Of a DNA stretch of 64,000 nucleotides, positions 2,821 to 27,133 are shown in pieces. A program made the translations under genes and the position numbers. The notes beneath the pieces were generated by a model that was not told the origin of the DNA, made no database searches, and worked only from the letters and a program-made list of their open reading frames with translations. This stretch comes from a phage, in NCBI GenBank assembly GCA_024682255.1, contig GCA_024682255.1_4716.1; one strand, given 5' to 3'. Position 1 is the first letter of the stretch; each line of letters opens with the position of its first letter.

Positions 2821-3321
2821 TTACTCTTCTGTGTTTTCATTGTCAGGATCGTAGTGGAATTCGAACAGCCCTGAACCGTCGTGCCCGTTGATTGTTAGTA
2901 TAACGGGCATATCGAATCCTCGGACGCGCGAATGAAAACACTGTGCTAATTTGAGTTTGGCGTATGCCACTATTTCATTGACGGCAATGCACGACTCACC
3001 TGTTATACTCAGTATAACGTCGATACTAACAATGTTGTCGTGCAACGCAAAACGCCAGCGATCGATACGATTATTATCTTTAGCAGGTGTCTCGTTTACG
3101 AGATAGACTTTATCGTCAACCGACAAAGCGGGACTCCAGCAACGTTCGTTTATTAAATTCGCCTGGAGTTTTAGTATCGTCTGATCAATAATATCCCAAC
3201 ACGCAACCAGCGTGGCGTCAGACACTGAATTGAGAAGGGTGAGTACTTTATCCTTTATTTTAAGTGCTTCCGCAGGACGCCCGCAAATACCATGCATTTC
3301 AACTTTCTTATTCATATTCAC
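2821..3321 (-). CDS. Hypothetical protein (166 aa), acidic C-terminus
   Basis: ORF in minus-strand array. Confidence 0.55.
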   Translation of the reverse strand: MNMNKKVEMHGICGRPAEALKIKDKVLTLLNSVSDATLVACWDIIDQTILKLQANLINERCWSPALSVDDKVYLVNETPAKDNNRIDRWRFALHDNIVSIDVILSITGESCIAVNEIVAYAKLKLAQCFHSRVRGFDMPVILTINGHDGSGLFEFHYDPDNENTEE

Positions 3322-3360
3322 TTCTTTCTTAATCTAAATGTTAGTTGGGGGATGGGATGC

Positions 3361-3993
3361 TTACATGCTTTCTAGCATATTGACGATCATGGAACCCATA
3401 CCGAAACTCGGTCTCTCACCGATATACTCAGCAAGTTGACGGTGTACGTCTTTTGGATTTCCTTCTTCACCGTCAGCATCGATGTAGACCGAAAAAGAAA
3501 CCGAATCGGAATCCACGCTGATAACCAGACGACGTTCATTGCGTTCCTTGAGCGTGTCGACGATAGATGCTTTCAGTACCGGGATCGCATTCATCGCGTG
3601 CAAGATATCTCCATCAGGTCTCGCCAGATCGATCTTTTCTTTCAGGTCGATATTGATGTTGGTTACAATTGGGTTGAGGTCGACCTTGACATAATCGTTG
3701 GGATACATGCGAATAATCGCACGATCGATATCTGAACCGTAAAAGTCAACACGTGGCTTTAACACCTCTTTGTTTGGATCCATGTTTTCATCCATACCCG
3801 CCTGCAAGAAACGTTCTACGTTATCCAGTTCACGATAAACTGACGCTTCGATTTCTTTCAGATAGTTGGCTGCGGTTTCATGTTCTTTACGTAGCTCGTC
3901 TTTAAGGAGCTGTACGGTGGTTTCACTGGAACGAATGCTGTTCGCGAATTGGGTAATTGACATATCGAATTCCTTAAATTCTCTTGAGTTCAA
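3361..3993 (-). CDS. Hypothetical protein (210 aa)
   Basis: ORF in minus-strand array; strong terminator 4028-4045 upstream. Confidence 0.6.
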   Translation of the reverse strand: MNSREFKEFDMSITQFANSIRSSETTVQLLKDELRKEHETAANYLKEIEASVYRELDNVERFLQAGMDENMDPNKEVLKPRVDFYGSDIDRAIIRMYPNDYVKVDLNPIVTNINIDLKEKIDLARPDGDILHAMNAIPVLKASIVDTLKERNERRLVISVDSDSVSFSVYIDADGEEGNPKDVHRQLAEYIGERPSFGMGSMIVNMLESM

Positions 3994-8721: not shown

Positions 8722-9195
8722 ATGCCAGTTTCATCCAAACCAAGAAAAAAATCCGTAGGAAACCCTAAAGCTCAGGAAACAACAGCAATTCGTTGGGACG
8801 AGTTACGTGAACCTATCGAAAACTGCGAATTGTTATTAGGTACCCTGGGTGCGGCTATTTACCAAGCGACGCAGCCCTGTCGTTTACGATTAACCCAAAA
8901 CAAACGTGATGAGTTCGTTGCGTTATCAACAAGCACGAATAAAGATCTGACCGAACTTCAAACCGAATTGACGACGATCAAGAACTCCATTACGCCGATG
9001 TACGGTAAAGAAGTTGATGAACAAAGTATTCTGTTACAGTACAACTACGGGATGTCGTTAATGAACATCCTGGAACGCGCATCCGATATTCTGCGTCCTG
9101 ACGTTGCACGCCTGAGCCAACTGCGTGTTGAAGGGATGGAGAACCAGATCCGATTCGCTAACAGCGTTAAATCTCAAGGAGCCACCGAAGCATGA
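8722..9195 (+). CDS. Hypothetical protein (157 aa)
   Basis: ORF with AGGAG RBS; stop overlaps next start (ATGA). Confidence 0.65.
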   Translation: MPVSSKPRKKSVGNPKAQETTAIRWDELREPIENCELLLGTLGAAIYQATQPCRLRLTQNKRDEFVALSTSTNKDLTELQTELTTIKNSITPMYGKEVDEQSILLQYNYGMSLMNILERASDILRPDVARLSQLRVEGMENQIRFANSVKSQGATEA

Positions 9196-10877
9196 GCGAA
9201 CAAGAAAAAGAAGTCGTGACGAATCAGGAAGCCGTTGAGCGTTCAGAGTCGTCTGTTGAAACAACGATTCCGGCAAGTTCCGAGCCTGTTGGTTCCGTAC
9301 AGCAGGAAAGTAAAGACGAAGTCAACACTACTAAAGAAGATGTAGTGGCTCCAGAAGCAACCCGTGAAGAAGAACCGTCACATCCACCGCTAATCGATTT
9401 CTCGAAGGCGACGATACGTTTCCAATGCGAAGACATTCGTCCTAAGAGTCCGAAGAAAACAAAACGTCAGCCGTTGGTGTTACCGTTATATTCTCCGCGT
9501 GTGCAGACAACGTATTACCGGGAATACATCAACGAAGCAATGGATACCGTGCAAGCCATTGTCGCTCAACGCGGTAAACCGACAGACGAACAGTTTGATA
9601 AATTCAGTAAAGCGGTGGTGCAATCGGTTGCTGATGGACAATATCATCCGCGTGGTCCAGCTCACGATCGCGCGTTGGAACGTAAAGGCAGTCAGTGGAC
9701 TAACGTACCCGTAGACTCATCGGGTGTTGGTCGCGTTATTCCTGGCATTCCGCAACCGAACCATATTCCTGATGATGTCGAAGCGCCGCTGACAGGAACC
9801 GATGCGATCTATTTTGCTATCCGTAATACGAAATCAGGCGCACCTGCGGTAATGCCGTTATGGCATAGCGGTATTAAGCTGCAGTTCAATCCGCCGTCAA
9901 ATGAACGTGTTGCAATTATGCACGAACGTATTGCACGCGATAAAATCCTGGGTGGTCGTGATAGCACCGGTTTCCTGTTTTCGGCAACCTCGATTATCAC
10001 CATGAAGCACGCAATCGAATTAGCGTTAGAATGCTGTTACATGGCCAACGTACCGAACCTGGATATCCAGCGTTTGAAAGACATTATTCCGGTTACCGAT
10101 GTTCCGGCGTTGTTGTTGAACGTGCTGGTAACCATGTATCCGTACGGGTATCCTTACGTACAGACCTGCTATCAGAATCCAGAAACCTGCGACTATCGTG
10201 TCGAAGATACCGTAAGCTTTGCGAAGCTCTATCAAGTTGACAACAGCGCAATTACCAAACGTATGCGACAGATCATGACCGAAGGTCCGGTCATGACAGA
10301 TGAACTTTTGCGTGAGTATGCGAACGAGCTGGGTGAAACGAACTCCCGTACGCTGGATCTGTCCGACAACGGTTCTGTTATCATTGAACTCGAAGTACCG
10401 AAGATCTCACGACAAATCGCCATGGGTGAACGTTGGTTAAGCGATACGCTGGAAGATCTGCGTGATATTCTATCGCGTCCGTCGATGACCGAAGAAGAGC
10501 GTGATCGTGTTATTCGTGAACGTCAGTTCTATAGCTGGATGCGTCAGTATGATGCGTGGATCAAATCGATGCATGTGTCGGTAAACGGTACCATGCGTCG
10601 TGTAAGCGATGCAGATACGGCAACGGTATTAGCACAGCTGTCTCGTGACAGCGACCTTCGTGAACGCTATATCGATGGGCTGATGCAATTCATCGGTGAT
10701 TCGACGATTGCGCTCGCAGCGATGCCTGCCTGGAAATGTCCGAAATGTAATGCCGATATTGCTGACAATCTGCGTGACCAGAAATACTACGATCTGATTG
10801 CTTTGGATGTACCCCAGCTTTTTTTTACCCTAAACTCCGTCCAATCTCTTCAGGAGGGGATGGACGCGGTATTCTAA
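9192..10877 (+). CDS. Hypothetical protein (561 aa); zero-frame product of a candidate frameshift gene
   Basis: Long ORF translationally coupled to upstream gene; U7 slippery run 10820-10826 near 3' end. Confidence 0.75.
   Translation: MSEQEKEVVTNQEAVERSESSVETTIPASSEPVGSVQQESKDEVNTTKEDVVAPEATREEEPSHPPLIDFSKATIRFQCEDIRPKSPKKTKRQPLVLPLYSPRVQTTYYREYINEAMDTVQAIVAQRGKPTDEQFDKFSKAVVQSVADGQYHPRGPAHDRALERKGSQWTNVPVDSSGVGRVIPGIPQPNHIPDDVEAPLTGTDAIYFAIRNTKSGAPAVMPLWHSGIKLQFNPPSNERVAIMHERIARDKILGGRDSTGFLFSATSIITMKHAIELALECCYMANVPNLDIQRLKDIIPVTDVPALLLNVLVTMYPYGYPYVQTCYQNPETCDYRVEDTVSFAKLYQVDNSAITKRMRQIMTEGPVMTDELLREYANELGETNSRTLDLSDNGSVIIELEVPKISRQIAMGERWLSDTLEDLRDILSRPSMTEEERDRVIRERQFYSWMRQYDAWIKSMHVSVNGTMRRVSDADTATVLAQLSRDSDLRERYIDGLMQFIGDSTIALAAMPAWKCPKCNADIADNLRDQKYYDLIALDVPQLFFTLNSVQSLQEGMDAVF
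10820..10826 (+). other. Candidate -1 programmed ribosomal frameshift site (T TTT TTT)
   Basis: Heptamer in X_XXY_YYZ register of the 561-aa frame; -1 frame open 10778-11299. Confidence 0.35.
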
Positions 10878-10939
10878 TCGATCCGCGATACGGGTTACAT
10901 GACGGACAACTTGTTCGTAATGATGAAAAAATCTGGGAA

Positions 10940-11299
10940 TTGCTGTTAGCGCGTAAAGGCGATGGTGGCATGAAACTGAACATCGAAATGGGTATAGCGT
11001 ACGATACCATGTTTGGTTTGTACGACCGCGTTAACGAATGGACACCGTTGAAATGGGTGGCTCAGCATCCCGCTGAAGATCCCTGGGACAGATTAGGGAT
11101 TAAACCCTTAATCGAGGATTATGTTCGATTCGGTATTAAAGAGTTCATGACGCTGGATGCGTTTTTAAAAGCACCGTATCCTTACGCGCAAACGGTACTC
11201 AAAATCGCACAAGACGAACTGCGGAAACGTAGTGCGGTACTGGACGACGATGAGGACAAGTTACGACGAGAAGAAGAACGTTTACGAAACGGAAAATAA
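10940..11299 (+). CDS. Hypothetical protein (119 aa) or -1 frame extension of the 561-aa protein
   Basis: ORF track uses TTG start; frame is open upstream back to 10778 overlapping the 561-aa ORF end; internal ATG at 10968. Confidence 0.5.
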   Translation: MLLARKGDGGMKLNIEMGIAYDTMFGLYDRVNEWTPLKWVAQHPAEDPWDRLGIKPLIEDYVRFGIKEFMTLDAFLKAPYPYAQTVLKIAQDELRKRSAVLDDDEDKLRREEERLRNGK

Positions 11300-11300
11300 A

Positions 11301-11810
11301 ATGGCGAGATTTACCAGTTTGATTGGGTTGGATATTTGGGAAACACCGGCTGACGTTCGGGTTATTCCTGTTAACACCGTCGGTGTGATGGGACGTGGTC
11401 TTGCTAAGCAGGCAGCCGATCGTGTGCCCGGTCTTCTTGAAGCGTACCGTAAGCAATGTCAAGATGGGTTTAAGGTGGGAGAAGTCGTGTCATATCAACA
11501 CGGTGATAACGATCAACTCACTTACGTGCTGTTTCCATCAAAATCGGATTGGCGTGAAAGAACACGACGCGAGTATATCGTTAACGGTTTACTGGCGTTA
11601 AAAGCGTGGTTATTGGAGCTTCAGTTCGAAAGAGACGGCTTCTCATATCGGCGTCCGGCTGAACCGCTGATCGTTGCAATTCCTCCGGTTGGTTCTGGCT
11701 GCGGTAATATCGGCTACGGACAATCCGAAACAATCCAGCCTCAATGGGTACGCGCACAAATCAAACAGTATCTTGCCACCGTGCCAAACGTTCATTTCTA
11801 CTTGTTCTAA
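11301..11810 (+). CDS. Macro domain protein, TARG1/OARD1-like (putative ADP-ribose processing enzyme)
   Basis: Motifs VNTVGVMGRGLA and IPPVGSGCGNIGYG match macrodomain ADP-ribose binding loops; ATG at 11301 one nt after upstream stop. Confidence 0.55.
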   Translation: MARFTSLIGLDIWETPADVRVIPVNTVGVMGRGLAKQAADRVPGLLEAYRKQCQDGFKVGEVVSYQHGDNDQLTYVLFPSKSDWRERTRREYIVNGLLALKAWLLELQFERDGFSYRRPAEPLIVAIPPVGSGCGNIGYGQSETIQPQWVRAQIKQYLATVPNVHFYLF

Positions 11811-25592: not shown

Positions 25593-26423
25593 TTAATCGT
25601 AACTAAAATAAAGTTTGCTGCTGACGCCGCTATCGGAATGAGGTTTTAATACCAGAACAGAACTTCCGAACGACGGAAGTATTGGAACATTTAAATCGTT
25701 TGCGTCGGCAACTTTTCCATTATAAACGACACTGGCTGTTGTGATGAGTTCCCAAGCCGAGGCATAACTCATTGAAATCAGCGATGAGGCTAAACGGAAT
25801 GCGTTGTATCCTTCTGGAGTATCTCCAACTGACATCGAACGTATCGCATCTTGCGGCGGTAAATTTAGCTTGATGCCGTAGGTACTGAATGTGTGGAAAT
25901 CCCCTTGTTTACTATCTTCTGGATAGTACGAGGTTAGTGGTTCTCGCACCGTAAACAGTTCGCTAATATCGGTACTTACCGCTTTTCGTGCGAGGAATTG
26001 AAACGTACCGTACCACGATGCTGATGCATCAGAACGAACGGGAACAGATATGGTTTTCTCGCCGCTTTCAAATTTAACCTGTGATGCTAACGCTGAAGAA
26101 TCAAAGATCGTTAAATCGATCTTCAGCCCATACTTCTTAAACAGCTGCGTTAAGCAATCTGCTATCGTCGTCTTATCAGCAACGACAATAAAAGGTTGGT
26201 GTTTGATAAAGAGCTTATTAATGTCACGACGTTGAAGATAAACCTGTACGGGGTCTTCGATATAGTAAGTCGATTGTGGTGTGGGGACTATAGAAAGGCG
26301 TAACCGACCTGATGCACCATACCAGGCTGGCGTTAACGTAATGTCTGACAGGGATAACGGATGCTGGAGATAGGTGTTTATTTTAGATAACACTTCCTCC
26401 TGCCATGATGCTTCAGGATACAT
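25593..26423 (-). CDS. Hypothetical structural protein (276 aa), weakly related to the shared N-terminal module
   Basis: Contains RRDINKLF and FKKYGLKID resembling RRDIAK / DRYGxxFD motifs. Confidence 0.55.
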   Translation of the reverse strand: MYPEASWQEEVLSKINTYLQHPLSLSDITLTPAWYGASGRLRLSIVPTPQSTYYIEDPVQVYLQRRDINKLFIKHQPFIVVADKTTIADCLTQLFKKYGLKIDLTIFDSSALASQVKFESGEKTISVPVRSDASASWYGTFQFLARKAVSTDISELFTVREPLTSYYPEDSKQGDFHTFSTYGIKLNLPPQDAIRSMSVGDTPEGYNAFRLASSLISMSYASAWELITTASVVYNGKVADANDLNVPILPSFGSSVLVLKPHSDSGVSSKLYFSYD

Positions 26424-26507
26424 GCTGACCTCATAGATGATCGTTGATAGGAAAGAGACCTAATTCATACCATGGGAACCTTAAAAAAAAAAAGAAAAAT
26501 AGGAAAA

Positions 26508-26557: not shown

Positions 26558-27133
26558 TTAGTAAGGAATCAGATCGTTAAGCTTTTCTTCTTCAATGACA
26601 AAGAAGTTGTTCTGGTCGTCTAAATCTGTTAACAGGACTTGCCCAACAGTAAAGCAAGTGCCGCCTTTCTTAGGCACCCATACAGGCTCGTTCGTTACCT
26701 TATCGGGATACCATTTGAAACGATTGGTATCTAAGAAGAACGCTGCTTTGTTCGCTTTATCAGTTGAACGATAGCTAACTAGCGCAGGCCACTCAATCCA
26801 GGTGTTTGTGCACGGCACATGTAAAGGATACCATGCGCGCCAGCGTTTGCCTGGCCTGTTAGGATCAACCCAATACTCGGCAGTCAATACAGCATCTTTA
26901 TAATGTTTCTGCATTAACATTTCGAGCACAAGCTCATTGCCTTTTGATGCGTCTAACGTCACTTCCGTCATATAAAGCGATTTAGGTAATTCAGACTGTT
27001 TTGCGGGTGTTACAACACCGGTAACCAACGGTCTGCTCGGTTTACGTTTCTGTTCTTTCCGACGTGTGTAAAAGAATAGTCCGACAGATACGGCAACAAG
27101 TATAATAAACAACACTACCTTAATCCAATTCAT
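26558..27133 (-). CDS. Membrane-anchored protein (191 aa), N-terminal TM then Trp-rich domain
   Basis: N-terminus MNWIKVVLFIILVAVSVGLFFY followed by basic stretch. Confidence 0.6.
   Translation of the reverse strand: MNWIKVVLFIILVAVSVGLFFYTRRKEQKRKPSRPLVTGVVTPAKQSELPKSLYMTEVTLDASKGNELVLEMLMQKHYKDAVLTAEYWVDPNRPGKRWRAWYPLHVPCTNTWIEWPALVSYRSTDKANKAAFFLDTNRFKWYPDKVTNEPVWVPKKGGTCFTVGQVLLTDLDDQNNFFVIEEEKLNDLIPY

Follow-up and report, generated by a model that had tools for sequence, protein, structure and literature searches.

A conserved slippery site in the core gene cg18 of Chimalliviridae phages and a probable -1 frameshift extension of its product

In a stretch of phage DNA of 64,000 nucleotides (nt) (NCBI GenBank assembly GCA_024682255.1, contig GCA_024682255.1_4716.1; hereafter, the window), an open reading frame (ORF) encoding 561 amino acids (aa) ends shortly after a run of eight T residues, and a second ORF lies open across this run in the -1 frame. 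The layout raises the question of whether the locus holds two genes, one gene split by a sequencing error, or one gene with two products. Positions 9192-11400 share 95.7% nucleotide identity with positions 90831-93018 of Escherichia phage Goslar, a nucleus-forming jumbo phage of the family Chimalliviridae, and the 561-aa ORF is a homologue of the core gene cg18 of that family. Our analysis suggests that the locus is a single gene and that programmed -1 ribosomal frameshifting at the T run probably gives rise to a 63-kDa and an 80-kDa isoform.

The run, T8 at 10819-10826, is read in the zero frame as CTT (10818), TTT (10821) and TTT (10824), followed by ACC (10827). The heptamer T_TTT_TTT is thus in exact X_XXY_YYZ register, with 48 nt (16 codons) separating it from the TAA stop codon at 10875-10877. 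No second heptamer of this type is in register anywhere in the 561-codon ORF, and no other run of at least seven T residues occurs within the window. The -1 frame is open from 10778, directly after a TGA at 10775-10777, to a TAA at 11297-11299. Its first ATG, GTG or TTG codon is a TTG at 10940, followed by an ATG at 10970; Goslar gp082, the frame-2 ORF ending at the equivalent of 11299, is annotated from the equivalent of this ATG and thus falls inside the -1 extension. A -1 slip is predicted from the translation to produce ...PQLFF-YPKLRPISSGG..., a protein of 545 + 157 = 702 aa and 79.9 kDa with the junction peptide YYDLIALDVPQLFFYPK; the C-terminal peptide of the short form, read in the zero frame, is YYDLIALDVPQLFFTLNSVQSLQEGMDAVF. 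An earlier note on this DNA had described the heptamer in this register and the open -1 frame, and direct reading of the sequence confirmed both; the product pair of 561 and roughly 700 aa that it had proposed comes to 561 and 702 aa when computed. Any X_XXY_YYZ heptamer is expected in the 33-codon overlap in approximately 10% of cases by chance. The heptamer of one genome is therefore not beyond chance, and the significance of the site comes from comparative evidence.

The comparison set consisted of 49 non-redundant lineages, ranging from Pseudomonas to Bacillus phages, that were obtained from 68 IMG/VR loci together with phiKZ, Eowyn and AgentSmith after removal of near-duplicates; their proteins are 15-30% identical to that of the window. 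The downstream ORF lies in the -1 frame in 49 of 49 lineages, never in the 0 or +1 frame, and overlaps the upstream stop codon in all of them. The extension adds 151-188 residues, and the zero-frame stop codon is located 24-57 nt past the site (111 nt in one clade). The downstream ORFs annotated in phiKZ (gp077 + gp076.4), Noxifer, Eowyn and Bacillus phage AgentSmith occupy the -1 frame, which stays open back over the upstream stop, with a U-run at the homologous Phe-Phe codons; the predicted phiKZ junction reads ...IPIDMLSTFFYFGGLEVK. A tblastn search of 50,697 phage genomes with the fused protein matched 158 records, from phages of Pseudomonas, Erwinia, Serratia, Ralstonia, Klebsiella, Vibrio, Burkholderia, Xanthomonas, Salmonella and Bacillus, and the alignments either end exactly at residue 545, the junction, or resume as a second piece. 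One IMG/VR locus, L073 (IMGVR_UViG_3300011972_000001), a relative of the L056-L065 group, was left out of the lineage set: its upstream ORF is broken early, at approximately nt 1705, after which 291 codons are read in the +1 frame. No other locus shows this, and the break is a probable indel or assembly error.

The codon statistics indicate that selection acts on the slippery nucleotides themselves, beyond the Phe-Phe residues that they encode. The 49 heptamers comprise 25 T_TTT_TTT, 14 T_TTT_TTC, one T_TTT_TTA, four G_TTT_TTT, three G_TTT_TTC and two T5 variants; 40 thus have the canonical form T_TTT_TTN and seven the form G_TTT_TTY, and every lineage has a TTN codon at the A-site in the same register. 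The P-site Phe codon is TTT in 47 of the 49, compared with 39% of 672 other Phe codons in the same genes (binomial p ~6e-16). Likewise, the wobble base before the P-site codon is T in 40 lineages, compared with 31% T at third positions generally (p ~3e-13), and the codon to which this base belongs encodes 12 different amino acids across the lineages. In T4 gp26, a possible distant relative considered below, the C-terminal Phe-Phe is encoded by TTC TTT, indicating that a U-run is not dictated by these residues alone. The 20 bases TTTTTTTTACCCTAAACTCC are unchanged in relatives with ~55% protein identity despite heavily substituted flanks. Tandem slippage of two tRNA-Phe on U_UUU_UUY would lead to just such a pattern, namely an invariant register, tolerance of C at the last position and of G at the first, and no G at the last position. 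A non-identical first triplet has a precedent in T7 gene 10, in which X_XX is G_GU (PMC5009743).

Alignment of the extensions further indicates that the -1 frame is translated 5' of any start codon and is under purifying selection between the shift site and the start codons. The first ATG, GTG or TTG past the site is found 8 to 305 nt downstream; its position is not conserved, and in two lineages the extension lacks any ATG. An aromatic-Gly motif, with Phe in 45/49 and Gly in 36/49 lineages, is preceded by no ATG, GTG or TTG in 31 lineages and by no ATG in 40. In the window, the motif is Tyr-Gly, and its codons lie 3' of the zero-frame stop and 5' of every start codon in the -1 frame. Moreover, all seven variable sites within 10878-10969, the stretch from the zero-frame stop to the annotated ATG, are third positions of the -1 frame in the Goslar group. 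The comparison of orthologues proposed in the earlier note thus revealed a conserved slippery site and a downstream start that is not conserved, the reverse of the pattern that the note had named as counter-evidence. The locus combines an in-register heptamer, an open -1 ORF without a conserved start, a conserved site and selection on the -1 frame, which are among the features by which programmed frameshifting is recognized.

The zero-frame tail appears to be maintained as well. A HMMER search of 1.84 billion representatives revealed 1224 clusters at 50% identity, and among the 150 representatives listed, all 149 full-length proteins end 35-65 residues past the last CxxC and 10-20 residues past the Phe-Phe, with the common tail FFTLxxQ(R/K)... 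The AF2 model places a helix at residues 540-560 of the 561-aa protein. No in-frame fused homologue was found among the 149 full-length cluster representatives or by tblastn of the fused protein, and the protein clusters matched by the fused query contain hundreds of member sequences, all of 536-561 aa. These comparisons indicate that selection maintains a separate C-terminus of the short product and that conservation extends to the zero-frame tail as well as to the -1 extension, a pattern expected of two functional isoforms. Proteins of 686-687 aa in BFVD were considered as fused forms and rejected, since PHROG 8054 (693 positions) puts residue 545 at position 672, leaving a tail of ~20 residues; judging from this alignment, a long N-terminus is likelier than a fusion.

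These results also bear on the alternative, raised in the earlier note, that a homopolymer error (T8 for T9) splits a single gene. Homopolymers are error-prone, and one extra T would join the two halves cleanly, into an ORF of 702 codons that might also have been inactivated recently. However, the identical T8 and split are found in eight independent Goslar-clade assemblies; those sharing them with the window are Goslar, two IMG/VR metagenome contigs (L008 and L009) and four more public assemblies (L075 and L077-L079), which show 55-87% protein identity and include a Salmonella Panama contig and two ~55% relatives. Every lineage in a family with 1224 clusters is split and none is fused, and the tail after the run is itself conserved. 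With the same T8 and split in relatives, the -1 layout in 49/49 lineages and no fused homologue, sequencing error is excluded by the comparative data, and an error or a recent inactivation in any form has next to no probability. The Salmonella Panama contig (GCA_007261085.1, Salmonella enterica serovar Panama, AAHLWB010000010.1) is a 180-kb Goslar-like phage contig in a bacterial assembly, and its gene calls include none for the -1 ORF (locus 3162-3469 is empty).

We propose the following mechanism. Most ribosomes would read U8 in the zero frame and terminate 16 codons further on, releasing a 561-aa protein that ends in a short helix. A smaller share would slip back by one base with two tRNA-Phe on UUU_UUU (10821-10826), re-pairing with U_UU and U_UU, and would then read UAC CCU AAA... 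for 157 more codons to yield the 702-aa isoform, in which the C-terminal helix would be swapped for a Pro/Gly-rich linker and a helical domain. Residues 1-545 would be common to both isoforms, and their ratio would be set by the efficiency of the shift. The sequences themselves show the site, its register, the frame relation, the lack of a usable start codon and the purifying selection on the slippery nucleotides and the -1 frame; the ribosome as the place of the shift, the shift efficiency and the role of each isoform are inferred.

The same 702-aa fusion could also arise by transcriptional slippage, in which phage or host RNA polymerase would add a U at T8 in some transcripts. We consider this explanation unlikely, but it is the main rival. 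In known bacterial cases, realignment of RNA polymerase occurs at homopolymers of about 7-9 or more. Runs of T7-T8 are present in 33 of the 49 lineages, and TTT is commoner than background over TTC at the A-site, which lengthens the run; an extended product made by slippage is known for Shigella mxiE (PMC5009743). In contrast, 16 lineages have only T5-T6, 17 have TTC at the A-site where TTT would give a longer run and leave the protein unchanged, and the codon register is invariant, which slippage does not need. A second alternative is that the locus consists of two ordinary genes, the downstream one starting at ATG 10970 or TTG 10940, perhaps by termination coupling, with an incidental U-run. 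More than 150 deposited genomes annotate the locus in this manner, an ATG is present at 10970, and AGGAGG at 10852-10857 provides a ribosome-binding-like sequence nearby. However, the variation of the start position over 8-305 nt, the two lineages without an ATG in the extension, the aromatic-Gly motif 5' of every start codon in 31/49 lineages, and the silence in the -1 frame of 7/7 variable sites in the supposed intergenic stretch all speak against two genes; moreover, the codon bias that makes the U-run would be left unexplained, and the frame relation is -1 in 49/49 lineages. Two separate genes are therefore very improbable in our judgment.

Several observations weigh against programmed ribosomal frameshifting. 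A T homopolymer is the classic motif of transcriptional slippage, and the lack of a conserved ribosomal stimulator is what the slippage model expects. The sites of nine of the 49 lineages are non-canonical (G_TTT_TTY or T5), and the invariance of the register could partly stem from the conserved Phe-Phe residues. Across the 49 lineages, downstream windows of 40-80 nt are no stabler than controls from the same genes (mean z -0.2, not significant), and an upstream Shine-Dalgarno sequence is found in three, equal to background. No Rfam match was obtained across 10500-11400 at a permissive E-value. Weighing these points together with the register, codon usage and frame data, we favor ribosomal frameshifting as the probable mechanism.

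The region around the site may nevertheless carry information at the RNA level in the Goslar group. Positions 10764-10899 (136 nt) show zero substitutions in four Goslar-group genomes, compared with ~9% variable columns gene-wide. This invariant stretch spans -56 to +73 of the site and thus takes in 56 nt before the run that are presumably coding in a single frame, which suggests an RNA-level constraint beyond dual coding. The predicted fold downstream of the heptamer in the window is modestly better than that of shuffled sequences (44 nt, -16 kcal/mol, z -1.5; 70 nt, -25.1 kcal/mol, z -2.1). The stems ACTCC/GGAG and CGTCC/GGACG named in the earlier note exist and are used in this fold, but they are not conserved across the family. 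Within the Goslar clade, the 5' arm of the window hairpin is kept, but the relatives with 55% identity have a different 3' arm, and RNAalifold on the clade gave a weak consensus only. In the family as a whole, only 11 of the 49 lineages fall in the lowest stability decile (p 0.008), and a positional scan from -150 to +190 around the site revealed no family-wide enrichment of structure. The AGGAGG mentioned above is a perfect match in the overlap, 26 nt past the heptamer, forms part of the predicted hairpin, and is found in the Goslar clade only. An ATG at 10860, 2 nt after it, is in the zero frame and would yield a 5-residue peptide.

The positions of the features are listed in the table.

Table. 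Features of the cg18 locus in the window
Feature	Position	Strand	Basis
Zero-frame ORF, 561 aa, 63.4 kDa	9192..10877	+	Goslar gp081 / phiKZ gp077 / cg18 homologue
Slippery heptamer T_TTT_TTT (U_UUU_UUU)	10820..10826	+	direct read; homologous U-run in the same register in 49/49 lineages
Predicted -1 extension of the long form, 157 aa, YPKLRPISSGG...RLRNGK, TAA 11297-11299	10826..11299	+	translation; homologous extension in 49/49 lineages
Zero-frame tail TLNSVQSLQEGMDAVF + TAA; short-form C-terminal helix; dual-coding with the -1 frame	10827..10877	+	
Candidate stimulatory hairpin, 7 nt past the heptamer	10834..10870	+	RNA fold -16 kcal/mol, z -1.47
Tyr-Gly codons, aromatic-Gly motif of the window	10889..10894	+	alignment of extensions from 49 lineages

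The surroundings of the locus contain further features. A macro-domain gene at 11301-11810 (Pfam Macro, E 1e-5) begins with an ATG located 1 nt past the stop codon of the -1 ORF (TAAAATG). In Goslar, this gene is started at an upstream GTG (window 11232), giving an overlap of ~65 nt with the extension; the shorter form, starting at ATG 11301, is more likely. An A7 run at 8745-8751 lies near the N-terminus of a 157-aa ORF at 8722-9195, a homologue of gp080. The longest homopolymer in the window is an A11 run at 26483-26493, flanked by minus-strand ORFs at 26558-27133 and 25593-26423; read on the coding strand, it becomes a T11 just past a stop codon, and it looks more like a terminator tail than a coding slippery site.

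As to the identity of the protein, the zero-frame product corresponds to Goslar gp081, phiKZ gp077 and RAY gp267, which constitute core gene cg18 and are listed as 'hypothetical protein'; gp082 is unlisted (PMC10299810, supplement). Proteomics placed the Churi homologue among the early-expressed proteins (PMC11849849). The text of a preprint on the Goslar cryo-EM structure, with 28 modelled virion proteins, contains no mention of gp81 or gp82, which is weak evidence of absence from the virion. The window protein had no Pfam match at E <= 0.1, and the PHROG families that it matched (4585, 8054 and 12109) have no assigned function. The AF2 model of the 561-aa protein is confident (pLDDT 84, pTM 0.84), and comparison with solved structures found no relative; the prediction for the extension from 14 sequences was poor (pLDDT 53). 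Four Cys residues, C326, C333, C516 and C519 (codons at 10167, 10188, 10737 and 10746), are invariant, as is F544. Beyond the protein's own family, Foldseek against BFVD returned proteins named 'Baseplate protein' and 'Baseplate hub assembly protein, T4-like' (E 1e-4 to 1e-3, probability 1.0).

The cg18 site is very probably a new and very widely conserved example of a known mechanism in a core gene, as judged from the sequence comparison. We found no description of a frameshift in cg18 in the full-text literature, with subscription-only papers lying outside the search, and neither a 2016 review of recoding (PMC5009743) nor the core-genome paper (PMC10299810) mentions one. cg18 is one of 68 core genes of Chimalliviridae, and all annotations that we checked split the locus into two genes, one of ~550 aa and a small orphan ORF whose start is arbitrary. 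The existence of two isoforms would probably mean a corrected annotation for more than 150 phage genomes and bring the extension into the core proteome. The site would also be an unusually old and widespread phage recoding site, occurring in phages of Pseudomonas, Erwinia, Vibrio, Ralstonia, Escherichia and Bacillus. The combination of such breadth with a plain U-run that lacks an evident stimulator makes it a good test case for frameshift predictors, and equally for the question of whether phages that separate transcription from translation favor ribosomal or transcriptional recoding. It further offers a genetic handle, since a synonymous TTT to TTC change should leave only the short form and a one-base insertion only the long form.

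Among known recoding systems, slippage in Shigella mxiE depends on a T9 run. As proposed for cg18, a run of T residues there joins two overlapping ORFs to give an extended product (PMC5009743), but mxiE recoding is transcriptional, whereas the runs of cg18 are T5-T8 with an invariant codon register. The bacterial dnaX gene (tau/gamma) shares with the recoding proposed for cg18 a -1 shift at a homopolymer-type site, A_AAA_AAG, and two isoforms in a set ratio. The shifted product of dnaX is the shorter one, and strong stimulators, an upstream Shine-Dalgarno sequence and a downstream hairpin, assist the shift; neither is conserved at cg18. In Thermus, dnaX reaches the same outcome via transcriptional slippage, which mirrors the ambiguity at cg18. 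The extension of T7 gene 10 (10A/10B) is shorter than that of cg18. In other respects, gene 10 resembles what is proposed for cg18, with a -1 shift on Phe codons at a U-rich heptamer with a non-identical first triplet (PMC5009743), a position near the end of the ORF, a C-terminal extension and no nearby classical stimulator. However, gene 10 encodes a capsid protein of T7-like phages only, whereas cg18 spans a family at 15-30% identity.

The -1 frameshift of the lambda G/GT tail assembly chaperone is conserved among long-tailed phages (Levin 1993; Xu, Hendrix and Duda 2004; via PMC5009743). Like G/GT, cg18 has a -1 slippery heptamer near the 3' end of a gene, products that would share the N-terminal part at a fixed ratio, and a layout that is kept over very divergent phages while the sequences are not. 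However, cg18 exceeds G/GT four- to fivefold in size (545 + 157 aa, compared with roughly 140 + 140), and its site is a U-run, whereas that of G/GT is G_GGA_AAG. It is not located beside a tape-measure gene, so that in size and position it differs from G/GT; its neighbors are the 157-aa ORF, RNA-polymerase subunit genes and the macro-domain gene, and a helicase gene in phiKZ and Noxifer. Foldseek found no match of the cg18 model to the tail-assembly-chaperone fold (E > 1).

A further comparison is with T4 gp26 (PF12322, 'gp26 family baseplate hub assembly chaperone'). Both proteins have two pairs of invariant Cys residues, arranged as C-x-C ... C-x-x-C in gp26 and as C-x6-C ... C-x-x-C in cg18, and then an invariant Phe-Phe, after which only a few residues remain; gp26 ends in ...CPECGKTHAHVIRGLKEFFELL. 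In contrast, cg18 is 2.5 times longer, and the Phe-Phe of T4, TTC TTT, contains no slippery run. Profile searches against PF12322 matched one of 92 family members at E 0.014 and not the window protein, and hhalign of the cg18 and gp26 profiles gave E 0.027 and a probability of 1.8%, below significance. The sequence profiles thus make the link a lead rather than a membership, and the modelled structures tie cg18 weakly to the gp26 hub-assembly chaperones. T4 gene 25 starts at -1 relative to gene 26 (TAATG overlap), with no U-run. The short and long T4 paralogues gp26 and gp51 (L080 7803-8429 and 8480-9229), which both match PHROG 150, resemble the proposed short and long isoforms: gp26 ends just after FFxLL, and gp51 runs on for ~46 residues past the corresponding VFKLL. 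The extension of cg18 showed no similarity to the C-terminus of gp51. We tentatively raise the possibility, which we hold to be rather doubtful, that cg18 is the chimallivirus counterpart of gp26/gp51 and that its -1 frameshift is the functional equivalent of that of lambda G/GT. If so, one gene would supply a short and a long chaperone at a fixed ratio for the hub and tail of a giant phage with a contractile tail. The conserved tail-assembly frameshift rule would then reach the phiKZ-like myoviruses, which have T4 as a distant relative and in which no such frameshift is known, and a function would be assigned to a core gene that has been unannotated since phiKZ was sequenced in 2002.

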